64,000 bases of DNA from an uncultured Bdellovibrionales bacterium (lineage in GTDB: Bacteria; Myxococcota; XYA12-FULL-58-9; JASMKV01), in contig CAXGWX010000001.1 in assembly GCA_964013445.1 (NCBI GenBank), positions 5,055 through 69,054 on the forward strand. The letters run 5' to 3'. Within the stretch, counting starts at the first letter, position 1. The number at the start of each line of letters is the position of its first letter. Below, piece after piece: positions 25,883 to 48,411 of this stretch. The notes under the pieces are model-generated. The model did no database searches and had not been told where the DNA came from. It saw nothing but the letters and a program-made list of their open reading frames with translations. The position numbers were made by a program, and so were the translations under genes.

Positions 25883-28800
25883 TTAATTGAATATTCTCCT
25901 GATCTTCTTTATAACACCAGAATATCGGCTATTTGTGCCTTGGCCAGACTCCTCGAAAAATCTTTCACTCTTTGTGTTGAGATGCACACCCTTGCCCTCT
26001 AATGCTAGATTTTTAGCCTCAATAACACCATCTCGCCTGGAAATGGCTTCATTCTTCTCATTTATAACATCATCTCGCCTGGAAATGGCTTCATTCTTCT
26101 CATTTATAAGGGCTGTCTTTGCCCGCAAGGCTTCGTTCTTCTCATTTATAACACCATCTCGCCTGGAAATGGCTTCATTCTTCTCATTTATAAGGGCTGT
26201 CTTTGCCTGCAAGGCTTCGTTCTTAGCCTCAATAATCAAATCACGACGCTTCAAAGCACTGTTCTTTTCAAGGATAAGAAAGTTCTTTTCCGCCAATGCT
26301 TGATTTTTTTCAGCAATGGTCTGATCGCGCCTAAGTAATGCCATGCTTTTATCCTTCATCGATGCTGTATGCTTACCTTTATTAAGAAAAGACTGTTCCA
26401 GCTTAGATGAGCGTCCAAAAACACTATCTATTTGCATAATCAAATTTGAATATTTTGCCGCATCAAATTTTTCAATAAACTCCTCAACGACTCTTTCCAA
26501 CTGCCCCCCTAGCATATCCCTCCACTGGTTGATGTCGCATTGATAATATCTAGAAACCAACCATCGAGACATTTCTTCAATCTCTCGGGTAGTAATTGCA
26601 GATGTCAAATGCGGCCACATCTTATCTGCTATCTGTTGAGCCTCATCCTGCTTGCCCGCTAAAATATTCCACAAAACCCCTTGCCACAATCGCTTGTTCA
26701 TCCGGTATCTCATGTGTGCCGCACCAAACCCGTCTCGATACTCATCTAGGGCGTGCCCACTACAATCATCAACACTATAAACTTTATCTAAAACGAAATT
26801 AAGTTTGTTCAAGTGAGCATTATAGTCTGAGAACACTGTCCCCTCTGAGGTCTGTACATATTTAACCATCGCGTCAGGAACATTATTAAAAACAACCCCG
26901 CATCTCGCTAAACGCTGAAAAAAGTCCCAGTCTTCTCCATTAGCAATAGTGGGGTCAAATAATGCATATTTAGGAATAAATTCACTTTTCAAAAATAGTG
27001 CGTTGCAATGAAATGGGCACCCATCCATATTTAAGAATGTCGTTGTTTTACGATTTTTCGAAGTAATCCAGCTTAGATGATCCTTGTTTCCGTCGACAAT
27101 TTCGGTAGGACAATAAACCGCATCATGATCGAAATCGATAAGGTGCTGCATGCGTAAATGTATGGAACCATCACAAAACACATCATCCGCATCCAAAAAT
27201 CCTATATAATCACTCTCTGCCGCCAGCATTCCCGTATTTCTGGCATTTGATACCCCATTTTTGTCACTGTCTATTACCTTTATGCGCGAGTCATTCCCGG
27301 CTATATTATATAGTATTTCCCTGTTCTCCTCATTAGACCCATTATTAACAATAATAACATCCAGCCGTGGATAATTATCCTCAAAGACTGAATCTAATGC
27401 CTCCTGTATGGTGCTGCCTGCATTGCGGTAAGGTATAACTATCGAAATTGAAGGATAAAAATCGTTCTCATATTCTTCACCCAAATATGTATATCTTTTA
27501 CGCAGAGCCGGCAAATAAGACGGAGTCAACACATCAAACTTCTTACCGCGACTTTCCGCAAGTGTAATCCATTTATCTAAGACATCTCGGTGAGTAGTAT
27601 TGTACTCATTAAAATCAATATCAAAAAAGCTTGGATGAGCCGTTTTTATGTTGGCCATTTTAGAAGTAATTTGAGTCTTTTTATTATGCTTCCAATAATA
27701 ATCGTCTTCCTTCAATTTACGTCCGTCGCACCCAAGAATATGAATATGATTCGAAAATGTTGCGGCCAAAGGAATCATCATATTTGTTAGAATGTTTCCT
27801 GTCGTTTCGATATAAAACTGGTGGTTTAGGTTCAAATTGGTCCCTTTACCGCTTTCCAATGGTACACCAACACACCGCTCTTTTAACTCAGGAAAATAAT
27901 GAGTGAACAGCCTGTAGTAATTAAATGGAATCATAATCGGGAGGTCATATTTACCAACAACATCTAACAGTTTTTCCCTGTACTCTTTAGCGTATAAGTT
28001 ACACCCAAAATGGAAAATAGGATCGCCAAAGACCAACATCTCAGGGTTAACATATTTAACCAATTCATCATCAAAAATTACACTGTTACAAATAATTCTT
28101 AGACCATCATCGAAGTTGTAATTCGGGTATTTATCAATGGATGGCCCCGTCGCGAACAGATAGGATTTTTCCTTCTTACCTAGGCGATGTGCCAATTCCA
28201 TTAACCGAGCTTTGCACTCTTCAACATCGGCTTCCTTTTCGGGATAGTTATCAGGGTGCAACCCTGCCTTGATGTAAAAGGAACCTTCATAGCGCTCATT
28301 AATATTGTCAACTCGCCACCTCTGCTTCGCGCCAACTTCTTTCTCGAAAGCCTGTTTCCATATGGAGCTGGGATGCGTTGTTAAATCCCAATGCATTACG
28401 AGATCTGCCGAACGAAAAACCTTTACGGGAGCATTGGTATCGCTCGCATTAAGAACATGAATCTTGTCACGAATTTCTTCATAAACTCCAAGAATTGAAG
28501 GGTCCAGATAATCAGGAACCTCAAATTCAAAGCCTGAAAGGTCCAAGTTTTCGTCACAAAAGAAATAAATCTCTCTAAAATCAATAACACTTAAATACCA
28601 GCACGCTCTAGCAATATGGTCATTCAAATCGTCCAGAGTTGAGAAAAACGGGTAATAAAAGACAATGGGTTCAATAAACTCTTCGTGCCGAACAACATTG
28701 CTCTCTGTCAAATTCTTTATCTTTCGTTCGCGATTCTCTATCATGATATGCTGTTTATTTATGATTCGTTGTTGCGATGTAAAAATCTCTGATGCCAGTT

Positions 28801-29497
28801 GAAATTGTTCAGCTAAATCGGAAGATTTTAAGGCAATCAAATTTCCCCAGCCGTTATTGTCACCTAAATCACATGGGTATTTTGTTAGTGACCTCCATGT
28901 ATGTTGCATTCCATATTCGACAATAGGATACCACTCAGACACAAAAACCGTATAACCTTGTTCAATAAGATAATTAGCGATATCTCTAAACCTATAGCCC
29001 AACGGTATCGTTTTACGGTTTTCAAACTCACAAATAATATATTCTGGCTGTATTTGAGACCAATCATTCGATTTCAATACAAAATAGTCGAAACCTTCTG
29101 TATCAATTTTTAAAAAATCTATTTGATCGATATTTTTCTCATTACAAAAATCATCTAACCTAATCGTCTCAACGTTAAAATGTGATCGATGACTCGTATG
29201 AAATGAACTGAGCCCGCTGATACCGGAGCTAACATCGCTCTGATAAAACGGCAATACATCGCCCGTCTGTTCCCCTATAGCGCGTGTGTCAACATCAACA
29301 TTTACAAATTTTTCGATTGATTGTAAAAGTCTCTCACGATTTTTTGGATCAGGTTCAAGAGCAAATATTTTCCATCCATCTTCCGCAAAACGTTTCAGTG
29401 AACCCCCATAATGCGCACCAACATCAATCATGGTACGGAGTCCCGTATTGGCACCATTACTCTTTATGAATTGATAAATGAGTTCTACTTCGTTCAT
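25883..29497 (-). CDS. Multidomain glycan-assembly protein: N-terminal FkbM-family methyltransferase, central domains, GT2 glycosyltransferase, C-terminal coiled coil of 14-aa repeats and a basic amphipathic tail
   Basis: FkbM motif MIDVGAHYGGSLKRFAEDGWKIFALEPDPKNRE near the N-terminus. Start chosen at the ATG (complement of 29495-29497) preceded by an AGGTG RBS; the listed ORF extends to 29575. GT2 motif ISIVIPYRNAG...IVNNGSNEEN...LDADD at about residue 700. C-terminal repeats (KNEAISRRDGVINE / KNEALRAKTALINE) followed by GVIKKIRRIFN. Confidence 0.7.
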   Translation of the reverse strand: MNEVELIYQFIKSNGANTGLRTMIDVGAHYGGSLKRFAEDGWKIFALEPDPKNRERLLQSIEKFVNVDVDTRAIGEQTGDVLPFYQSDVSSGISGLSSFHTSHRSHFNVETIRLDDFCNEKNIDQIDFLKIDTEGFDYFVLKSNDWSQIQPEYIICEFENRKTIPLGYRFRDIANYLIEQGYTVFVSEWYPIVEYGMQHTWRSLTKYPCDLGDNNGWGNLIALKSSDLAEQFQLASEIFTSQQRIINKQHIMIENRERKIKNLTESNVVRHEEFIEPIVFYYPFFSTLDDLNDHIARACWYLSVIDFREIYFFCDENLDLSGFEFEVPDYLDPSILGVYEEIRDKIHVLNASDTNAPVKVFRSADLVMHWDLTTHPSSIWKQAFEKEVGAKQRWRVDNINERYEGSFYIKAGLHPDNYPEKEADVEECKARLMELAHRLGKKEKSYLFATGPSIDKYPNYNFDDGLRIICNSVIFDDELVKYVNPEMLVFGDPIFHFGCNLYAKEYREKLLDVVGKYDLPIMIPFNYYRLFTHYFPELKERCVGVPLESGKGTNLNLNHQFYIETTGNILTNMMIPLAATFSNHIHILGCDGRKLKEDDYYWKHNKKTQITSKMANIKTAHPSFFDIDFNEYNTTHRDVLDKWITLAESRGKKFDVLTPSYLPALRKRYTYLGEEYENDFYPSISIVIPYRNAGSTIQEALDSVFEDNYPRLDVIIVNNGSNEENREILYNIAGNDSRIKVIDSDKNGVSNARNTGMLAAESDYIGFLDADDVFCDGSIHLRMQHLIDFDHDAVYCPTEIVDGNKDHLSWITSKNRKTTTFLNMDGCPFHCNALFLKSEFIPKYALFDPTIANGEDWDFFQRLARCGVVFNNVPDAMVKYVQTSEGTVFSDYNAHLNKLNFVLDKVYSVDDCSGHALDEYRDGFGAAHMRYRMNKRLWQGVLWNILAGKQDEAQQIADKMWPHLTSAITTREIEEMSRWLVSRYYQCDINQWRDMLGGQLERVVEEFIEKFDAAKYSNLIMQIDSVFGRSSKLEQSFLNKGKHTASMKDKSMALLRRDQTIAEKNQALAEKNFLILEKNSALKRRDLIIEAKNEALQAKTALINEKNEAISRRDGVINEKNEALRAKTALINEKNEAISRRDDVINEKNEAISRRDGVIEAKNLALEGKGVHLNTKSERFFEESGQGTNSRYSGVIKKIRRIFN
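25990..26330 (-). repeat. In-frame 42-bp tandem repeats (about 7-8 copies, the central ones near-identical) encoding the coiled-coil region of the 25883..29497 protein
   Basis: Near-perfect copies of ttctcatttataacaccatctcgcctggaaatggcttcattc and a sister unit alternate between about 26020 and 26220. More diverged copies lie on both sides. Confidence 0.85.
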
Positions 29498-30031
29498 GCC
29501 TAAACACCTATAAAATGAGGAATTACCTCGAATAATAAAAATCGCTATATAGTTAGTATTGCCCAGATATGTCAATCAACCCATTAGTGAATTAACACCG
29601 CAAAGGGGTAAAAATTAGGCGCATAAGCCATATCAGTTCGCATTAATCACTCACTTGCGTCATCACATATTGCTGTCTTTCTGCAAACATTTGCTGCAAG
29701 CACTACGGCGCTCTGCTTAACCAAAAACAAATCGCATCCATGTCCATAAATCTTCAAGTATCTTCACAAGTTAAGATTAAGACGACAAACAATGTTAATC
29801 TAATTTACCTGCACTTGAGTGAAGGAAACTCCCTAGCATATCATAGAAGCTTAAAAATTTATAAAGTATAGAAAGTTTTCCGTAAGTAAGGTATCGTTTC
29901 GCCTGAATTACAAAAACATCCTCTGGAATTCATCGATGAATTTGCAAAACAGCTTGCACCGTTTCAGATTGATGCCATATGCACAAAACGCCCAGATTTA
30001 TGGAATAAAAGTTTTTCTAAGCAATAGCTGC

Positions 30032-40022: not shown

Positions 40023-41135
40023 TCAAATACGCATTGGCATGATAACGGTAAGAAAACCTGTTTCCTCAAGAGGCTGGATAATTCCTGGTGATAGGTCATC
40101 AGTTAGCTCTAAACAAATACTATCTTCAGAAACCAAGCCTAGAACCTCCATAATATAACGGGCATTAAAACCAATTGTTAATGGATTTCCTTGATAAGCA
40201 ACATCAATGGTTTCGTTTGCATTACCTAGTTCTGGATCTTCAGCCACCAACTCCAAAGAGTCCTCATTGAAAACAAAGCGCACACCATAAGATTTGCCCT
40301 GAGATAAAAGTGATACTCGTCGTAGGGCTTGGCTTAATTTCGATTTTGAAATCTTAATTTCTTCACCGGCTTCCTGGGGAATAACTTGCTGATAGTCTGG
40401 AAATTGTCCTTCGATAAGACGTGTCGTTAAAATGACATTATCAGCTCTTAAGAAACCACTGTTATTTGTAAAACCTAGTTCTACGGTCTCGACAGCATCG
40501 TCGTCCTGTAAAACTCGTCGTAATTCCTGGAAACCTTTTTTAGGAACAATCACACCGCTCTCAAAAGGTAATTCATTGGTAAAATTCTTTTCGCTAAAAG
40601 CCAAACGATGACCATCGGTTGCCACAAGTCGTAAAGTTTTTTTATCACGAACTTCACAATAAACTCCGGAAAGATTGTGTCGATTATCATCAGCGGAAAC
40701 ACAAAAGATTGTTCGTTCAATCATTTGTGCCAAGTCTTCTGATGGAATCTGAAAAGTATCTGTTTCTGTATGCGAAGGTAAATTCGGGAATTCATCTCCA
40801 GACATTCCAACCAGTTTGAAATTGGATTTCCCTGAACTTATTTTAATCCATTGATTTTCAGCGACTTCAAAATTGACTTCGTCTTCAGGAAGAGCTTTTA
40901 AAATATCATATAAATGTCGGGCATGTACGGCAATTGAGCCTGGTTTAGAAACGTTTGCCTCATAGGTTCCGGTGAGTCCAACTTCAAGATCAGTTGCGCT
41001 TAAACGTAACTCTCCTTGATTGCTTGCTTCAATAAGTACATGAGCCAGGATTGGCATTGTGCTCTTTTTGTCAGCTATTCCTTGCACGCGAAATAGAGCT
41101 TTTGTGAGTTCAGAAGATTGGATGGTAAATTTCAT
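40023..41135 (-). CDS. dnaN: DNA polymerase III beta sliding clamp DnaN
   Basis: 370 aa, MKFTIQSSEL...ALFRVQGI N-terminus, three-domain clamp length. Between dnaA and recF. Confidence 0.9.
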   Translation of the reverse strand: MKFTIQSSELTKALFRVQGIADKKSTMPILAHVLIEASNQGELRLSATDLEVGLTGTYEANVSKPGSIAVHARHLYDILKALPEDEVNFEVAENQWIKISSGKSNFKLVGMSGDEFPNLPSHTETDTFQIPSEDLAQMIERTIFCVSADDNRHNLSGVYCEVRDKKTLRLVATDGHRLAFSEKNFTNELPFESGVIVPKKGFQELRRVLQDDDAVETVELGFTNNSGFLRADNVILTTRLIEGQFPDYQQVIPQEAGEEIKISKSKLSQALRRVSLLSQGKSYGVRFVFNEDSLELVAEDPELGNANETIDVAYQGNPLTIGFNARYIMEVLGLVSEDSICLELTDDLSPGIIQPLEETGFLTVIMPMRI

Positions 41136-41230
41136 TGCGTATCCTTAGCTAATGAAAAAGTAGCTAGGGGTTTGCGCTGCTTTTGTCAACCCTTAGATAA
41201 GCCGGTTGAAATTGGCTCAAGGCTCTCTAT

Positions 41231-41270
41231 TTATTTAATATATATATATAAAATAATAATAATAATAATG
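41231..41270. promoter_or_regulatory. AT-rich tract (candidate DNA unwinding element) in the dnaN-dnaA intergenic region
   Basis: ttatttaatatatatatataaaataataataataataatg is nearly pure A/T, and is immediately followed by DnaA-box-like ATATCCACA sites at 41274-41282 and 41334-41342 (reverse orientation) and TTATCCAAA at 41414-41422. Confidence 0.5.
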
Positions 41271-41537
41271 GGCTGTGGATATGTGAATAAGTGAAAATAG
41301 CTCTGAAAAAGTTGGCCTTTTAAGAAGAAATCTTGTGGATATCCTCTGCACGAAAATGTTTTTAAAGCTGTGGGTAAGTCGAGTTTCGAGTGGCTCACAT
41401 TTTTTTCACAAGTTTATCCAAAGACCTGCTCACACTTTATACACAGAAAATAGGCGTAAAAACGGCGATCTTTTCCTAAAAAAAGTGGAATTTATTTTTA
41501 GTTTTGCCTCTTGTAAGGGGTCTAAGGGCTGCGGAAA

Positions 41538-42941
41538 TTAACCGGGTTCAGAGATATCAAGCTTGCGTTCGAGAGCAAAAACCTCTGAACGTAAGGAGGG
41601 GTCTTCCTTGAGCAGGGAAGTCACTTTTTTACAGGCACTGAGAATAGTTGTATGATCCTTGTTTCCAAATCGAGCACCGAGCTCAGGATAGGAGGCACCA
41701 GCGTGTTTTCGGCAAAGATACATGGCTACCTGACGGGGCCGAACGATAACTTTCTGTCGGCTGGCACTTTTTAAGTCGCCCATTTTAACTTGATAGTATC
41801 CTGCAACTGTTTTTTGGATGGATTCAATGGATATCTGCGCAGGTCGTGTGCTTAAGATGTCCTGGAGAACATTTTTAGCATAATTTACATCAATGCTGGA
41901 GCCCGTGAGGGATGCGTGGGCAGCAATACGTACCAAAGCGCCCTCAAGCTCCCGAACATTGGAGCGAATATTTGAGGCGAGAAAGTGGAGCACTTCGTCC
42001 GGTAAATCGATTTTATCGCTTTCCGCTTTCTTTTGTAGGATTGCAATACGTGTTTCCAGTTCTGGAGGTTGAATATCCGCAATCAGACCCCATTGAAAAC
42101 GAGACCGGAGGCGCTCTTCAATATCAGGGATTTCGTGAGGCAGCTTGTCACTGGTCACGACAATCTGGCGTTGGGAGTCGTATAAGGTATTAAAAACATG
42201 AAAGAATTCATGCTGTGTGCGGACTTTTCCTGCGATCAGCTGAATGTCGTCGATAAGAATGACATCGCAGTGCCGTCGGTATTTTGCGTGAAACTCTTCA
42301 AGCTTAGAAAAACGCACCGCTGCAATAACCTCATTTACAAATTGTTCTGCGGATGTGTAGATAACGCGGGCATTAGGTCGATCCTGTAAAATTTGTTGCC
42401 CAATCGCTGAGATAAGGTGGGTTTTCCCAAGACCAACACCCCCAAAGAGAAAGAGAGGGTTGTAAGAGTGGGCCGGATTTTCCGCCACCGCCTTGGAGCC
42501 AGCAAAAGCCAACTGATTTGAAGGACCAGCAATGAATGTATCGAAGGTATATCGGGGGTTAAATTGCTTTGTATAGAGGGCATTTTGTTCGGGATTAAAC
42601 GAGATTTCCGAGGGTTTTGGGGATTCCTGTAGAAGATCTGTAGATTCCTCCGCCGCCGCAATCTCGGTTGAAGATTTGATCGTGGGATCCAAGGCCCAAT
42701 CAACGGCCAGCTGCTCTTGAGCCAGCTCGCTGAGGTGATCACGGATGAAATCGAGGTAATGATCACAGAGCCAATCGCGAAAAAACTGATCCCGTACCGC
42801 CAGAATGATGGTTCCATTGACCACTTCCCGGGCTTGAATAGGCAAAAGCCAGGTCTGCCAAACATGGGTGGAAACTTTGTTGCGGGCCAGGGACAAGAAT
42901 TCCGTCCAGAGCGCTTGTGGGTCGATTGTTTGCTTTAACAT
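41538..42941 (-). CDS. dnaA: Chromosomal replication initiator DnaA
   Basis: AAA+ Walker A GGVGLGKTHL, Walker B ILIDDIQ, and the C-terminal DNA-binding helix region. 467 aa. Confidence 0.9.
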   Translation of the reverse strand: MLKQTIDPQALWTEFLSLARNKVSTHVWQTWLLPIQAREVVNGTIILAVRDQFFRDWLCDHYLDFIRDHLSELAQEQLAVDWALDPTIKSSTEIAAAEESTDLLQESPKPSEISFNPEQNALYTKQFNPRYTFDTFIAGPSNQLAFAGSKAVAENPAHSYNPLFLFGGVGLGKTHLISAIGQQILQDRPNARVIYTSAEQFVNEVIAAVRFSKLEEFHAKYRRHCDVILIDDIQLIAGKVRTQHEFFHVFNTLYDSQRQIVVTSDKLPHEIPDIEERLRSRFQWGLIADIQPPELETRIAILQKKAESDKIDLPDEVLHFLASNIRSNVRELEGALVRIAAHASLTGSSIDVNYAKNVLQDILSTRPAQISIESIQKTVAGYYQVKMGDLKSASRQKVIVRPRQVAMYLCRKHAGASYPELGARFGNKDHTTILSACKKVTSLLKEDPSLRSEVFALERKLDISEPG

Positions 42942-43000
42942 GGACTATTCACAATACCTTAAAAAATATTTTATCAAATCAAAACAGATACTTATATCTG

Positions 43001-43032
43001 TTATCCACTATTTATCCACAGACCTATCCACA
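43001..43032. promoter_or_regulatory. Cluster of three tandem DnaA boxes upstream of dnaA (candidate oriC / dnaA autoregulation site)
   Basis: TTATCCACT (43001-43009), TTATCCACA (43012-43020) and CTATCCACA (43024-43032), same orientation, 2-3 bp apart. All match the TTATCCACA consensus with at most 1 mismatch. Confidence 0.75.
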
Positions 43033-43352
43033 GCTTTTTCAAGCTAAGGAAGAGGGTTATAAGTATTTTGTTGTCGGTGAATTGAGTGTGTGCTTTCCGC
43101 ACCATACTCGCCCTTCCCCCAATCAAAGACTCCGCCGATTTGAAGCACAAACAAGCGGCTTTGATAACATCGTTTCTACCCTTCTAAGTAGTATTATCTC
43201 TATTAGCGATGAGCTCGTTCTCAAGTCAATAGCGAAAATTGCACTTTATCCCATTTAAAAAGATCTCCAGCGCATTTTTGCTCGGAAGGATCTTTTTGCT
43301 CCTTGATTGGCAGCCATCTCTTTCCTAAAGGTTAAAAACCCGACTTGAGCCA

Positions 43353-43380
43353 TTGACAAAGTGGCTCCCACAGGTAAAAA
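43353..43380 (+). promoter_or_regulatory. Putative sigma70-type promoter for rpmH-rnpA-yidD-yidC
   Basis: TTGACA at 43353-43358 and TAAAAA at 43375-43380 with 16-bp spacing, about 55 nt upstream of the rpmH ATG. Confidence 0.3.
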
Positions 43381-43434
43381 GGCCGCCAACAAGCGAATAA
43401 TAAAATAGATTTTTAGAAAGGAAGTTGCAGAGCC

Positions 43435-43584
43435 ATGAAACGGACATTTCAACCGCACAATCGTCGCCGTCGGCGCAAGCATGGATTTCGTAAACGCGCC
43501 TCCACTGCATCTGGCCAAAAGATTTTAAAAGCTCGTCGCCAAAAAGGACGACATCGTTTAGCCGTTGTAACCGCATCGAAGTAA
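43435..43584 (+). CDS. rpmH: 50S ribosomal protein L34
   Basis: 49-aa [52 protein letters not shown] with an AAAGGAAG RBS. Below the 60-aa cut-off of the ORF track. Directly upstream of rnpA. Confidence 0.85.
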
Positions 43585-43587
43585 AGG

Positions 43588-43953
43588 ATGCTTGAGGAGA
43601 GCTTGCAGGAACAACCGTCAGAGGACGGTGTGCTTGGGCTGAAGACTCGTAAGGATTTTTTACGTGTACAGGGGAAAGGGAAGCGATTTAAAAGTCGGCA
43701 TTTGATACTCTTGAGCCATCCACAAACTTTAGATCAAGCCCGTGTAGGGATTACACTTAGCCGTCGTGTTGGTAACGCGGTAACCCGAAATAAAGTTCGT
43801 CGTAGGCTGCGAGAAATCATTCGCCTCAATAAGCATCTTTTTTCTCGTATTTACGATCATGTCATCATTGCCAGCCCAAAGAGTGCGCGGGCAGACTACG
43901 AAACGCTTGAAACAGAATTATGTCATCTCTTAGCAAAGCTACAAAGGATTTAG
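43588..43953 (+). CDS. rnpA: Ribonuclease P protein component
   Basis: RKDFLRVQGKGKRFKSRHLILL and RNKVRRRLRE motifs. 121 aa. rpmH-rnpA linkage. Confidence 0.8.
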   Translation: MLEESLQEQPSEDGVLGLKTRKDFLRVQGKGKRFKSRHLILLSHPQTLDQARVGITLSRRVGNAVTRNKVRRRLREIIRLNKHLFSRIYDHVIIASPKSARADYETLETELCHLLAKLQRI

Positions 43954-44177
43954 GCCTACTTCGTGGGGTTCTAAAATTTATAATCTACCTTTACCGATAC
44001 AGTTTAGGTGGGCTCTTAGGGGGGCAGTGCAGATTTTATCCGAGCTGTTCGACCTATGCTTTAGAGTGCTGTGACAAGCTTCATTTTAGGGAAGCAATCA
44101 TTCGAATAACCTGGAGAATTCTGCGTTGTCATCCATGGAGCAAGGGTGGGTATGAACCATTGCCCGGCAGACGGTAG
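43920..44177 (+). CDS. yidD: Membrane protein insertion efficiency factor YidD
   Basis: YRYSLGGLLGGQCRFYPSCSTYALE signature. Overlaps the rnpA end. Confidence 0.8.
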   Translation: MSSLSKATKDLGLLRGVLKFIIYLYRYSLGGLLGGQCRFYPSCSTYALECCDKLHFREAIIRITWRILRCHPWSKGGYEPLPGRR

Positions 44178-44192
44178 AGCAGAGAACAAACA

Positions 44193-45929
44193 ATGAACGA
44201 ACAACAACGTGTCTTTTTAGCTATCTCTTTATGCTTGGCTATTCTTATTGGTTGGCAATATTTCTTTGCGCCAGCGCCAATGGAACCAAGAATCCAGGAT
44301 GATTTTGCGACGCAAACAAACGAAGCGCCAAAGGAAGCAGTAAAAACAAAAGCAACTAAAGATACAGCACCGGCAGCAGAGTCTCCAGGTGCAGCCGAAG
44401 GTCAAGATCCGAGCGTTGTTGAAGAGGCTAATGCGCCGAGCGCTGAAGAAGTGGCTGTTGTTGTCCCTGTTGAGACCAAAGCATTTGATACAGATCTTTA
44501 TAAGGCTTCAATAGTCAACAATTTGAGCATTGGTGATTCTGATAAGAAAAATGTCTTAGGTCTAACGCAACTGGAATTGCTCGAGTATAAGGAAGCGAAG
44601 GAAGAGGGCCAAAGTCCGGCTTTGGTCAATCTTGTTGATCAGTACGACACGGGAGAAACAAGACAAGCCTTAATCCAATGGCATCTCGGCGAATATGATG
44701 CGCCAAGAATGCAAGAGGATAAGACAGCTGATGCTTTAACCTTTCGTGGCAAATCTCCAAAAGGTTTGCATACAGAAGTTGTCATCACTCCTGATGAATC
44801 AAGTTACGCAATGCATTACAAGTTAAGGGTTTTGAATAGATCCTTGGTTACCTTGCCTGTGGACGCGACTCTTATTCTTGCCTTGCAGCAGGATGGGGAT
44901 TTGGGTTCGGCCAGTATGTTCGCGGCTGCAACGGCTCAACCCATGACAGGTCGGTGTCTTTTAAATGAAGATATCGAAGAGTTCGATATTAATGAGCTCC
45001 AGGAAAAACGGGACGAAGAGAATTCCGATTGGCGCTCCGAAGGCAAAAAGAATTTACATTGGGCAGGGATCGATCGCCAATATTTTGTTCTTGCAGCTGC
45101 ACCGGCTAAACCGGATTTAGCAAAATGCTCAATGACAGCCTATGCAGGTCATTTAGAAGTTAAGGTACATTTTGCCCAGGAGTTGGTTGCTCCTGACGGT
45201 GATTGGAGCGCGGAATTTAGTCTTTATGCGGGACCGAAGAAAGTCGAACGCCTCGAAGAGGTACAAAAGGAACTCGGCTCATTTGTTGATTACAGTATTA
45301 TGGGGCTTCCTTTGGGTTTCATAGCGCGGCCTATGATTTATAGCCTCAACGTTTTCCATGGTTGGACAGCAAGTTGGGGTATTGCGATTATTCTTTTAAC
45401 ATTTTTTGTTAAAGCAATTCTCTTGCCCGTGACCATCAAGAGCACCATTTCAATGCGTAAGATGCAATTGTTGCGTCCCGAGCTCGATAAGCTCAAGGCT
45501 CGATTTGGCAGTGACAGAGAGCGCATGAATGTAGAGCAGATGAAGCTCTTTAAGGAAAAGAATGTTAACCCCTTGGGCGGATGCTTACCGATGCTTTTGC
45601 AGATGCCAGTGTGGTTTGCACTTTATCGCAGCCTTTGGTCTGCTGTTGATATTTATCAGCAATCCTTTGCCTGGATTCCTGATCTGACCGCAAAAGAACC
45701 ATTTCCATTTATGGCTATAGCCATCGGTGGCTTAACGGTCTTACAGCAAAAACTCACGCCAACCAGTGTAGATAATGCGCAAGCGCGTATGATGATGATT
45801 ATAATGCCAATCATGCTTATGGTTTTTATGATCGCTCTACCCAGTGGTTTGGTACTTTATATCCTGGTGAACAGCGTGCTGACTTTGTTTCAGCAGCTGA
45901 TCATCAACAACATGAAAATTACTATTTAG
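44193..45929 (+). CDS. yidC: Membrane protein insertase YidC with long periplasmic domain
   Basis: 578 aa. N-terminal TM. Large periplasmic region. Conserved C-terminal 5-TM core (PLGGCLPMLLQMPVWFALY). Confidence 0.9.
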   Translation: MNEQQRVFLAISLCLAILIGWQYFFAPAPMEPRIQDDFATQTNEAPKEAVKTKATKDTAPAAESPGAAEGQDPSVVEEANAPSAEEVAVVVPVETKAFDTDLYKASIVNNLSIGDSDKKNVLGLTQLELLEYKEAKEEGQSPALVNLVDQYDTGETRQALIQWHLGEYDAPRMQEDKTADALTFRGKSPKGLHTEVVITPDESSYAMHYKLRVLNRSLVTLPVDATLILALQQDGDLGSASMFAAATAQPMTGRCLLNEDIEEFDINELQEKRDEENSDWRSEGKKNLHWAGIDRQYFVLAAAPAKPDLAKCSMTAYAGHLEVKVHFAQELVAPDGDWSAEFSLYAGPKKVERLEEVQKELGSFVDYSIMGLPLGFIARPMIYSLNVFHGWTASWGIAIILLTFFVKAILLPVTIKSTISMRKMQLLRPELDKLKARFGSDRERMNVEQMKLFKEKNVNPLGGCLPMLLQMPVWFALYRSLWSAVDIYQQSFAWIPDLTAKEPFPFMAIAIGGLTVLQQKLTPTSVDNAQARMMMIIMPIMLMVFMIALPSGLVLYILVNSVLTLFQQLIINNMKITI

Positions 45930-45945
45930 AAAGAGGAGCAAAGTT

Positions 45946-46953
45946 ATGGCGCAACAAGAATTTGAGGGAAGAAGTGTTGCAGAAGCCTCTATTGCAGCTT
46001 GTGAAGCATTAGGCGTAATGCGTAAAGAATTGATCTACACCATCGTATCCGAGAGCGGTGAAGCGTTAGACAAACGTGTGGTTTTATCTGTCGATGTAGA
46101 GGCAACAAAAGCCAAGGCAAGTGAGCCACAGGTTGCAGCAGTAGATGAACTTGAAGACGAAGATGATTCCCAATCCGCAATGAATGCAAATCACGAGCAT
46201 CCGGATATGCGAGGGGATAGCGACCGTGGTGGTCGTGGCCGTGGTCGCGGTGGTCGCGGTGGTCGTGATGGTCGTGGTGGTCGTGGTGGTCGTGGTGGTC
46301 GCGGTGGTCGTGATGGTCGCGGTGGTCGTGGCGGTCGCGGTGGTCGTGGCGATGGACGCCGCGAAGCGCGTCGGCGTGCCGAGCCTGCTATTGATGACAT
46401 GCTCGACTTCAATATTTTGCCAGCGGATCAAGTAGAGAAACGTGCCGCATTAGAAGGCGAAATCAGCGAGCTTGCCCAAAGCGCGAAGGGGACGTTGGAA
46501 GAGATGTTAACGCATCTTGAATTCAACCTTGATCTAAATATCGTTGCGGATGGTGAAGAAGAAATCCATATCGATGGTTGGGGAGAAGATTCGGAGCGTA
46601 TGATTGGAGCAAAGGGTGAAGGACTTCTTTCCTTGCAGTTCTTGCTGAATCGTATTGTAGGCAATGTTGAAGAAAAAACACCAACGGTTGTGCTGGATGT
46701 GGCTGGTTATCGCCAACGCCGCAAGTCTGCCCTTTCCCATTTGGCTGAAAAGTTGGCCACACGGGCCCGGGACGAGCAAAAGGTGGTAAAATTAACACCG
46801 ATGTCGGCTCATGATCGACGTGTTTTTCACATGACCTTAAAAGAGCAGGATGGAGTTTCAACTCACTCTGAAGGAACAGGTTTGTACCGCAACCTTTTTA
46901 TTGTTCCTGAAGATGGAGCTTCAGAGGCTAACGAAAACTCTGATCGGGAGTAA
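45946..46953 (+). CDS. jag: Jag/KhpB-family RNA-binding protein (Jag_N-KH-R3H) carrying an internal RG/RGG repeat insert
   Basis: Jag_N-like N-terminus. R3H-like C-terminus (SAHDRRVFHMTLK). Conserved position after yidC. Residues about 85-135 are (GRGG/RDGRGG)n. Confidence 0.75.
   Translation: MAQQEFEGRSVAEASIAACEALGVMRKELIYTIVSESGEALDKRVVLSVDVEATKAKASEPQVAAVDELEDEDDSQSAMNANHEHPDMRGDSDRGGRGRGRGGRGGRDGRGGRGGRGGRGGRDGRGGRGGRGGRGDGRREARRRAEPAIDDMLDFNILPADQVEKRAALEGEISELAQSAKGTLEEMLTHLEFNLDLNIVADGEEEIHIDGWGEDSERMIGAKGEGLLSLQFLLNRIVGNVEEKTPTVVLDVAGYRQRRKSALSHLAEKLATRARDEQKVVKLTPMSAHDRRVFHMTLKEQDGVSTHSEGTGLYRNLFIVPEDGASEANENSDRE
46224..46353 (+). repeat. GGTGGTCGY trinucleotide/nonamer tandem repeat encoding the RGG box of Jag
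   Basis: About 14 consecutive 9-nt units (ggtggtcgt / ggtcgcggt / gatggtcgt variants). Confidence 0.85.
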
Positions 46954-46965
46954 TATCTTATATCG

Positions 46966-48411
46966 TTGCCAGGTATGATGTCGCAGCAGAGCCATGAGCG
47001 CGAGGAGCGCATTTTAGTTATCAGCGATATTCATCTTGGTGAAGATATTTTGCAAGAAGGTCCGGAAAAGCTTTCCGAATACATCAAGCGTCTCAATTTT
47101 GAACTTAGTTCGTTCATCCGGGGACACCTGCAATCCGAAGAAGAGTCATTTCGGTGGCGTTTAATTATTAACGGCGACCTCTTTGATTTTCTCAAAGTGG
47201 GTGTAGAAGAAGAAGACTTCGCTGATGCGGATAAGTCGGTAGCAGGTGAAACAGTATGGAAGCTACACAGAATTGTAGAAATTCATCGTCCCATATTTAA
47301 GGCCCTCGCAGAATTTGTCAGCGAGGGACATCGTTTGACGGTCATTGAAGGCAACCATGATGCGGAGCTCTACTTTAAAGAGGTTAAAGATGCATTTCGT
47401 AAGGAAATATTTGCACTCTGTCCTGGAACAAGCTCTGAAGAACAGGCAAAATTTGAAAGCCGTATAGAATTTTGCACTTGGTTTCATGCAAAAATTGGAC
47501 GTTTTCATATTGAACACGGTCATCAATACGACCCTCTATGCGCATTTGCTCATTTGTTGGCTCCTTTCGACAAAAACAGAAAGGACTTGGCAATTCCGAT
47601 TATCCACCGAGGGATTGCTCCCTTCGCGGAAGTTTTAACGGACTTTTCAACCCACGGTTTAGAAAAATGGGGGCTTTTAGACTATCTTAAGTTTGGCTTT
47701 TCCCAGAGTCCCAAGGTTCTTTATCGTGCAGCACTTGTCTATTTCCGCATTGCTTTCGATATGGTTGTTCATTCCGGAAAAAAACGCGAAGAAGAACTGG
47801 CGGAATTTAAGACTGAGCATGAGAGCGCTTTGGGGGATATGGCGCAAGAGGATATATATGGACTTCCAGTTCTTAAGAATCTGGATGCCTTAAAAGCAAA
47901 GCCTGCCGAATATTCCTGGTTTAAAATCTTTCATGCGCTTTTTCTCGACAGATTGGCTCTTGTTGTCATGCTTCCGATTTTAGTCATCTTAAGTTTTCTG
48001 TGCTTTTCCGGGCTCCAAGTCTTATGGGCCATCTTAACAAGTTTAGGATTGGTTTTGGGTGGAATATCTCTTTTGAATTCCGTCAACCGTTCAGATTCGG
48101 AGCATGAATTAAGGAGCGCAGCGACAAGAATATCCCGATTAACAGGGGCTCGCTTTGTTATTTTTGGACATTCCCATTATCCCGAATTAAAAGCGATTAG
48201 CGCCCAGGAGGGAGGGGCCTTTGGTGACTCTTGCTTTTATATCAATACTGGCTCCTGGGTGACTCGAGAAATTATCAACGATCCACCTCTAGGGATGACC
48301 TATGCAGAGCTGAATGCGGAGGGAGGATTTCTCAAACGTTGGCAGAGCCGAGCAACGCCGGAGGTGCTTTTTTCCTCTAAAGAGTTGCAACGTGGTGGAC
48401 AAGCAAGTTAG
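46966..48411 (+). CDS. Membrane-associated calcineurin-like metallophosphoesterase
   Basis: MPE motifs in order: SDIHLG, NGDLFD, GNHD, HGH...GHSH. A roughly 180-aa insert containing two hydrophobic TM-like segments lies between the last two blocks. The listed start is TTG. Confidence 0.6.
   Translation: MPGMMSQQSHEREERILVISDIHLGEDILQEGPEKLSEYIKRLNFELSSFIRGHLQSEEESFRWRLIINGDLFDFLKVGVEEEDFADADKSVAGETVWKLHRIVEIHRPIFKALAEFVSEGHRLTVIEGNHDAELYFKEVKDAFRKEIFALCPGTSSEEQAKFESRIEFCTWFHAKIGRFHIEHGHQYDPLCAFAHLLAPFDKNRKDLAIPIIHRGIAPFAEVLTDFSTHGLEKWGLLDYLKFGFSQSPKVLYRAALVYFRIAFDMVVHSGKKREEELAEFKTEHESALGDMAQEDIYGLPVLKNLDALKAKPAEYSWFKIFHALFLDRLALVVMLPILVILSFLCFSGLQVLWAILTSLGLVLGGISLLNSVNRSDSEHELRSAATRISRLTGARFVIFGHSHYPELKAISAQEGGAFGDSCFYINTGSWVTREIINDPPLGMTYAELNAEGGFLKRWQSRATPEVLFSSKELQRGGQAS

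Follow-up and report, generated by a model that had tools for sequence, protein, structure and literature searches.

KhpB, also called Jag or EloR, has begun to be recognized as a global RNA-binding protein of bacteria that as a rule have neither Hfq nor ProQ; in Firmicutes it pairs with KhpA, and in Streptococcus mutans Jag was found as an interaction partner of YidC1 (PMC11261784). The Firmicute proteins, known from Streptococcus pneumoniae, Clostridioides difficile and S. mutans and from the structure 3GKU, consist of a Jag_N domain, a linker, a KH domain and an R3H domain, and their gene follows yidC and rnpA. Work on KhpB to date has centred on these folded domains, mostly in Firmicutes. 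The gene considered here is a jag/khpB homologue at positions 45946-46953 (forward strand) of a 64,000-nucleotide stretch of DNA, termed the window, from contig CAXGWX010000001.1 of an uncultured Bdellovibrionales bacterium. Its product shares the domain order and gene position of the Firmicute proteins, and in both the stretch that links Jag_N to KH varies and lacks structure. Firmicute-type linkers are short or rich in Lys and Glu (P0130, P0133), whereas the linker in the window is rich in Arg, Gly and Asp, displays ten arginine-glycine-glycine (RGG) triplets and is devoid of Lys. Within the KH-R3H part the two types have ∼30-35% identity. No paper describing an RG-rich KhpB/Jag linker was found in the open-access literature.

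Eukaryotic cells offer well-known combinations of a KH domain with an RGG box, as in the RNA-binding proteins hnRNP K and Sam68, and arginine methylation regulates eukaryotic RGG boxes; we know of no arginine methylation in the bacterium considered here. In FMRP, the KH domains as well as the RGG region take part in association with polysomes and RNA (PMC9718894). The protein in the window resembles these in having a KH domain together with a disordered tri-RGG region, but there is no homology and its KH domain is of type II, the fold of bacteria. For an accessory RNA-binding arm of the kind proposed below, the closest experimental precedent is bacterial. In Pseudomonas aeruginosa, the DEAD-box helicases RhlE1 and RhlE2 owe most of their RNA affinity to disordered, basic C-terminal tails, which are both necessary and sufficient for RNA-dependent droplets (PMC11260450). 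Those tails are terminal regions attached to a RecA-like helicase core, unlike the internal region next to KH-R3H found here, and they are not described as RGG repeats, the words 'arginine' and 'glycine' having zero occurrences in the text (PMC11260450). Finally, in G3BP acidic tracts are reported to autoinhibit an Arg-rich region through an intramolecular contact that lasts until RNA competes (PMC7181197). G3BP1 is similar in that one RNA-binding protein carries both acidic and Arg-rich disordered blocks, the net charges here being -11 and then +14; it is an unrelated protein from a eukaryotic stress-granule context, and in the protein of the window fold-back is suggested by the charge pattern alone.

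As judged by sequence comparison, the window carries a form of KhpB with an RG-rich linker that is found throughout a clade of uncultured bacteria, here in an unusually regular and recently expanded copy. The RG/RGG tract comprises residues 94-139 (46225-46362, forward strand), with the translated sequence RGGRGRGRGGRGGRDGRGGRGGRGGRGGRDGRGGRGGRGGRGDGRR. It has 17 Arg, 26 Gly and 3 Asp residues, no Lys and no aromatic residue, and a net charge of +14. Residues 94-133 display ten RGG, 14 RG and eight overlapping matches to the tri-RGG pattern, which Thandapani et al. in 2013 reportedly defined as RGG-X0-4-RGG-X0-4-RGG. The tract follows the acidic first half of the linker, residues 59-93 (46120-46224), where 7 Asp and 5 Glu contribute to a net charge of -11. 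The remainder of the protein is acidic, which makes the tract its sole basic patch. At 45% G + C, the window uses Lys about as often as Arg elsewhere (6.0% and 5.7%, respectively), so that the composition of the tract, with 17 Arg and no Lys, is not an effect of G + C content.

An AlphaFold2 (AF2) model was computed on an alignment of 39 sequences of the clade. The predicted local distance difference test score (pLDDT) exceeds 90 for residues 1-58 (Jag_N, with a β-α-β-β-α fold) and residues ∼165-330 (KH, then R3H), the KH domain at 175-252 adopting an α-β-β-α-α-β fold. At residues 63-140 the score is below 50; it is 39-46 over the tract itself, which is without secondary structure. These low values place the tract in a predicted disordered linker between Jag_N and KH/R3H. 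Beyond the tract is a short acidic-hydrophobic motif, IDDMLDFNIL, at residues 149-158 (46390-46419, forward strand), which corresponds to a conserved block at columns ∼250-262 of the clade alignment. Its consensus in the clade is DDGIEALLxL, no other element of the linker is conserved so well, and a short helix is predicted by AF2 for residues 149-152 with intermediate confidence. The motif could serve for docking, either of a partner or of the KH domain.

Domains and synteny both place the protein in the Jag/KhpB family. The R3H domain (residues 263-320, 46732-46905, with R291 and H295) is matched in Pfam with an E-value of 6.7e-13, above the cut-off. The Jag_N domain (residues 1-58 by the AF2 fold, 45946-46119) matches over residues 6-36 with E 2.3e-4, its 22 bits being below the gathering cut-off of 25 bits. 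The match to KH_KhpA-B is weak (E 2.5e-3, under the gathering cut-off) and spans residues 197-243 of a KH domain that AF2 extends to residues ∼175-252 (46468-46701). Against the NCBIfam model NF041568, Jag_EloR, residues 5-320 score 119.1 bits (E 2.4e-34) and do not reach the equivalog cut-off of 145 bits; such a score is in keeping with a divergent lineage in which a long insertion extends the linker, and is no argument against membership of the family at the level of domains. Among solved structures the closest are PDB 3gku (E 7.4e-18 over residues 178-334) and 9lrg, a 'Jag-related protein' (E 7.5e-13). In the clade alignment the Jag_N block is strongly conserved, H289, D290, R291, R292 and H295 of the R3H domain are invariant, and the glycines G221 and G224 of the KH loop (GXXG, here GAKG at 221-224) are at least 90% conserved. 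The gene order rpmH-rnpA-yidD-yidC-jag, read from the gene tables of identical contigs, is the classical origin-proximal arrangement.

At the DNA level, Tandem Repeats Finder (TRF) detects an array of period 9 at 46225-46349 (forward strand), with 13.6 copies, 83% matches, 5% indels and the consensus CGTGGTGGT. Read by codons, positions 46225-46353 comprise 15 units that begin with Arg, of which 13 have 9 nt and two have 6 nt, and two more Arg codons extend the basic tract to 46362. The 12-mer CGYGGTGGTCGY is present nine times in the window, always within the tract, and is absent from 100 dinucleotide-preserving shuffles. Perfect sub-runs are found at 46269-46301 (33 nt, 3.67 copies, the longest at period 9), 46315-46351 (37 nt at period 18) and 46241-46265 (25 nt). 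Differences between units are mostly synonymous exchanges of CGT with CGC and GGT with GGC, to which is added a recurrent GGT-to-GAT change that forms an RDG unit. In the codon table, a 45-nt block appears to have been duplicated, giving units 5-9 and units 10-14, which differ at four synonymous sites.

The codon usage of the tract also points to duplication. GGT accounts for 22 of its 26 Gly codons, against 31% in the 36 long open reading frames of the window (binomial P 2.7e-8), and CGT or CGC for all 17 Arg codons, against 47% (binomial P 3e-6). This uniformity goes beyond what selection on amino acids alone would give and indicates that DNA units were recently duplicated to form the tract. 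The tract arose and lengthened through in-frame tandem duplication of a CGY-GGT-GGT unit and of larger blocks such as the apparent 45-nt one. Departures from the consensus unit are synonymous in 11 of 14 cases where one third would be expected (P 7e-4), a value to be read with the caveat that departures are not independent, as the units were copied from one another. With a unit length divisible by three, slippage would alter the length of the arm only and could not switch the gene on or off.

Other properties of the repeat were considered and set aside. A G-quadruplex in the mRNA of the tract was rejected: there are 26 GG runs and no GGG, and ViennaRNA with G-quadruplexes allowed chose the same hairpin fold. 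The sense RNA of 46216-46370, with none but C-, G- and U-rich codons, is predicted to form long G-C/G-U hairpins, with a minimum free energy of -74.9 kcal/mol against a shuffle mean of -64.6 (z = -3.0), and such hairpins could slow translation through the tract. As promoters of slippage or as regulators they were not retained, the effect relative to shuffles (z = -3.0 for RNA and -2.1 for DNA) being mostly compositional. Three open reading frames that cross the tract, at 46184-46435 (forward strand, poly-Val/Ala), 46191-46412 (reverse strand, PRP repeats) and 46084-46431 (reverse strand, Thr/Ala), are by-products of the repeat; at 73-115 amino acids, they should not be annotated as genes.

The preliminary description of this locus, made from the DNA letters, had recognized a Jag/KhpB gene with an RGG box, had ascribed that box to a 9-nt tandem repeat and had placed it between the Jag_N and KH/R3H regions. 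These assignments agree with the R3H, Jag_N, KH_KhpA-B and Jag_EloR matches and the operon context, with the ten RGG and eight tri-RGG matches, with the TRF period of 9 and its 13.6 copies, and with the domain boundaries seen in both the family matches and the AF2 model. The repeats had also been called perfect; at 83% matches and a longest perfect run of 33 nt, they are not.

The window represents a marine population that is uncultured, and it matches contigs derived from Tara Oceans at 100% identity and the NCBI metagenome-assembled genome (MAG) GCA_002720515.1 at 99.92%. The nearest other lineage found is a 'Myxococcota bacterium' MAG from the Arabian Sea (L001), whose Jag protein has 306 amino acids compared with 335 here and is 83% identical outside the tract. 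Its tract, GGRSYGGRGGRGGRDGRGGRD, is made of 4.7 copies of TGGTGGTCG, the same unit as in the window, and is enclosed by nearly identical flanks (SQSAMNANHEHP on one side and RRRxEPAIDDMLDF on the other). With ∼5 units in L001 and ∼14 in the window, the two genes give direct evidence of a gain or loss of ∼9 units between related species.

More distant members of the clade, from MAGs labelled Myxococcota, Deltaproteobacteria or Bdellovibrionales, have 41-52% identity. An Arg-rich linker of 55-137 amino acids is present in all 39 aligned relatives, with median contents of 25% Arg, 24% Gly, 20% Asp plus Glu and 0% Lys. At least three RGG triplets are found in 28 of the 39 linkers and none in four. 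Several relatives carry tandem repeats of their own, including RGE repeated 6.8 times (9 nt), RDRDRGG repeated 3.3 times (21 nt), RGRRDDRGG repeated 3.4 times (30 nt) and a 75-nt block. The genes of these relatives range from 48 to 74% G + C, so that G + C content does not explain the composition of the linkers. Comparison of the linkers thus shows a composition that is kept while length and exact sequence turn over by duplication. In all 39 members the most acidic 15-mer is N-terminal to the most basic one, and 19 have a distinct acidic 15-mer with a net charge of -4 or lower. Homologues found further out in Myxococcales and Polyangia are short proteins, with no Jag_N start and no RG tract in the extracted open reading frames.

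How far such linkers extend in the wider family depends on the search used. A first homology search with the full protein picked candidates by shared words, which biased it towards RGG; 96 of the 120 matches listed had at least three RGG. Frequencies were accordingly taken from a search with the KH-R3H part only and from a word-free HMMER search of cluster representatives. The HMMER search, which is blind to the composition of the linker, recovered 8,621 homologous cluster representatives with the KH-R3H part. Among the best 150 of these, a clear RG tract is present in 10 of the 27 closest Jag representatives (E ∼1e-30 or better) and in 12 of the next 123. Jag proteins with RG segments include other types of N-terminal sequence, and a match of one such type in the full-protein search is labelled Acidimicrobiales. 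Very long RG/Q-rich Jag linkers are also present, and in one protein the RG segment forms a C-terminal tail. RG-rich disordered segments are therefore a recurrent accessory of the Jag KH-R3H module, most frequent in the clade of the window. As a separate observation, metagenome assemblies often cut short the Jag genes of this clade, and many database matches are C-terminal fragments that start just past the linker (P0121, P0123, P0126, P0128).

The reading favoured here, with a probability of about 0.6, is that the tract would serve as a polycationic RNA-binding arm of low specificity. As the basic half of the disordered linker that joins Jag_N, a partner-binding domain, to the KH-R3H RNA-binding module, it would be flexible and make low-specificity contacts with both the backbone and the bases of RNA. 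By this means it could raise avidity and widen the target range of weak KH and R3H sites, as RGG boxes beside KH domains do in eukaryotes and the disordered C-terminal tails do in bacterial RhlE helicases. The acidic block upstream might bend back over the tract and shield it as long as no RNA competes, and gain or loss of repeats would set only the length of the arm. Several observations weigh against this proposal. RGG is absent from four of the 39 clade members, with Arg accompanied by Asp, Glu, Ser and Pro in examples such as P0125 and P0041, so that RGG as such is dispensable. The spread of linker lengths would agree with weak constraint as well. Part of the acidic-before-basic order may be imposed by the scoring, as the acidic end of Jag_N starts the scored region. 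Aromatic residues, which usually reinforce RNA binding and condensation driven by RGG, are absent from the tract, and the source organism is known from metagenomes only.

Some of these same observations would suit a simpler account, in which the linker need only be long and flexible and slippage inflated a seed run of RGG codons as a tolerated by-product, with no gain of function. The wide range of linker lengths, the clade members devoid of RGG, a closest relative with ∼9 fewer units and no other change, and a codon uniformity that reflects recent expansion of DNA are all compatible with it. On the other hand, lineages with different repeat units converge on Arg, Gly and Asp without Lys, a genome of 45% G + C among them; variation among units is mostly synonymous; and RG-rich segments were gained repeatedly beside the same KH-R3H module, once at the C-terminus. 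With these in view a by-product appears unlikely, yet it is the strongest competitor of the RNA-binding arm.

Blocks of opposite charge within one disordered region also raise the possibility of a condensate driver, whereby the acidic (-11) and RG (+14) blocks self-associate, alone or with RNA, into a phase-separated body that might lie near YidC. The invariable acidic-then-basic polarity of the 39 linkers and the distinct acidic 15-mer in 19 of them are in keeping with this, as are the phase separation of the bacterial RhlE tails with RNA (PMC11260450) and the partnership of Jag with YidC1 in S. mutans (PMC11261784). The tract is nonetheless just 46 residues long and has neither aromatic nor Gln/Asn stickers, ∼5 units suffice in the closest relative, and the protein as a whole is near neutral to acidic. 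Condensation is held to be improbable as the principal role; it overlaps with the RNA-arm explanation and does not exclude it. The proposal of the preliminary description that the insert may add RNA affinity or form condensates is a reasonable one.

A more elaborate scheme can be drawn from the same elements. A whole clade of Myxococcota-like bacteria, uncultured and from the sea, groundwater and soil, and independently some other phyla, would have convergently built the eukaryotic combination of KH domain and RGG box on Jag/KhpB, with the linker acting as an RNA-gated switch or condensate scaffold; mRNAs would be concentrated at YidC, RNA localization would be coupled to insertion of membrane proteins, and the length of the tract, as fixed by in-frame gains and losses of repeats, would tune the threshold. 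This scheme is speculative and, taken as a whole, distinctly improbable.

Tandem repeats in coding regions invite comparison with phase-variable contingency loci, and the preliminary description had considered the tract hypervariable by slippage. Like such loci, this one has a short tandem repeat within a coding region and a copy number that differs between related lineages; its array also includes perfect runs of up to 33 nt. Unlike them, it has a unit that is a multiple of three, by which only length would be tuned, and an imperfect array, and no variation within the population was seen among the assembled contigs. Neither a long uninterrupted perfect repeat nor a frame-shifting unit or promoter location is found: the 9- and 6-nt units are in frame inside the coding sequence. 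An identical 335-amino-acid protein is encoded on at least four contigs of the same population, which are consensus assemblies of 99.9-100% identity. Between the window and the NCBI MAG contig there are eight single nucleotide polymorphisms (SNPs) over 9.7 kb and no gaps; the tract itself has no SNP, and one lies 6 nt past it. Among the contigs listed for the flanking YidC and phosphoesterase proteins there were no length variants at strain level; those listed have the identical tract or stop nearby. A metagenome scan gave a single contig of the same population, which starts 50 nt after the tract, and an exact-sequence cluster look-up gave no match.

Four short-read contigs do break at or near the tract, two ending at 46123 and 46302 and two starting at 46369 and 46411 (L089, L090, L096, L081/L095), as might be thought typical of a hypermutable array providing length alleles within populations. 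Such breaks are expected at an internal repeat with a k-mer of ∼119-127 and do not demonstrate heterogeneity. In addition, synonymous changes interrupt the array every two to four units and stabilize it, and a contig with eight SNPs per 9.7 kb has no indel, all of which leaves a contingency locus very unlikely and the claim of hypervariability without support at strain level in these contigs. Nor is the insert peculiar to this protein, given the Arg-rich linker in 39 of 39 aligned relatives, at least three RGG in 28 of them and RG segments in other Jag lineages. As to whether it is a common element of fixed length, the insert proved common in the clade, but its length is not fixed, with ∼5 and ∼14 units in different species.

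Low-complexity repeats are prone to error in short-read assembly, and the tract has a weak match to the RGG region of human SERBP1 (E ∼1e-3); an artefact of assembly or a segment acquired from a eukaryote might thus come to mind. The contigs that span the tract with the same sequence are from separate records, namely the NCBI MAG and the ENA assembly of run ERR594338, and a homologous, shorter tract is at the same place in the Arabian Sea MAG. Bacterial sequence flanks the tract, and the match to SERBP1 reflects composition only. Either origin is considered exceedingly improbable. As the tract was made locally by duplication of 9-nt units in a bacterial gene, its likeness to eukaryotic KH and RGG-box proteins represents convergence and not descent.

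The genes around jag can be described briefly. In the window, the operon context begins with rnpA (RNase P protein; 43588-43953; Pfam Ribonuclease_P, E 1.6e-28) and continues with yidD (43920-44177), an 85-amino-acid open reading frame for which PF01809 YidD was called on a contig of 99.9% identity (L087). Directly upstream of jag is the gene of the membrane insertase YidC (44193-45929; Pfam 60KD_IMP, E 1.4e-55, and YidC_periplas, E 4.3e-20). These genes are on the forward strand, as is jag, where 335 codons and a stop are given in the list of open reading frames. The operon lies beside dnaA and dnaN on the other strand, and the order of genes around jag is identical in L001. A motif scan of the 64-kb window for khpA, performed with a strict regular expression, yielded no match and is weak evidence.

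At ∼40200-46950 the jag operon adjoins the divergently oriented dnaA and dnaN (L087, L088), and the window thereby probably holds the region of the chromosomal replication origin. An uncharacterized open reading frame of 110 amino acids between dnaA and rpmH was called on the NCBI contig only. A calcineurin-like metallophosphoesterase of ∼480 amino acids with predicted hydrophobic segments is encoded at 46966-48411, 3′ of jag, and is found 3′ of jag in L001 as well; this pairing may be conserved in the lineage. A second repeat of the window is located elsewhere, at 26022-26245 within an open reading frame of the reverse strand (25883-29575). This tandem repeat of 42/84 nt, with 2.1 copies at the 84-nt period and 96% matches, encodes 14-residue repeats (NEKNEAISRRDGVI / NEKNEALRAKTALI) at the C-terminus of a 1230-amino-acid protein, and these look like a coiled-coil tail expanding by duplication.

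The value of these observations is as a lead on RGG-type RNA binding in bacteria; they are not a discovery and offer no new mechanism. A large uncultured clade keeps a strongly basic, disordered Arg/Gly arm between the domains of KhpB, and similar arms were added repeatedly elsewhere. The relatives provide a natural series, from ∼5 to ∼14 or more units and with different types of unit, in which the length of an RG tract can be related to RNA binding. If the arm adds RNA affinity, the target range and behaviour of KhpB could differ sharply between phyla, and RNA binding of the RGG type would be a convergent bacterial solution and not a eukaryotic speciality.

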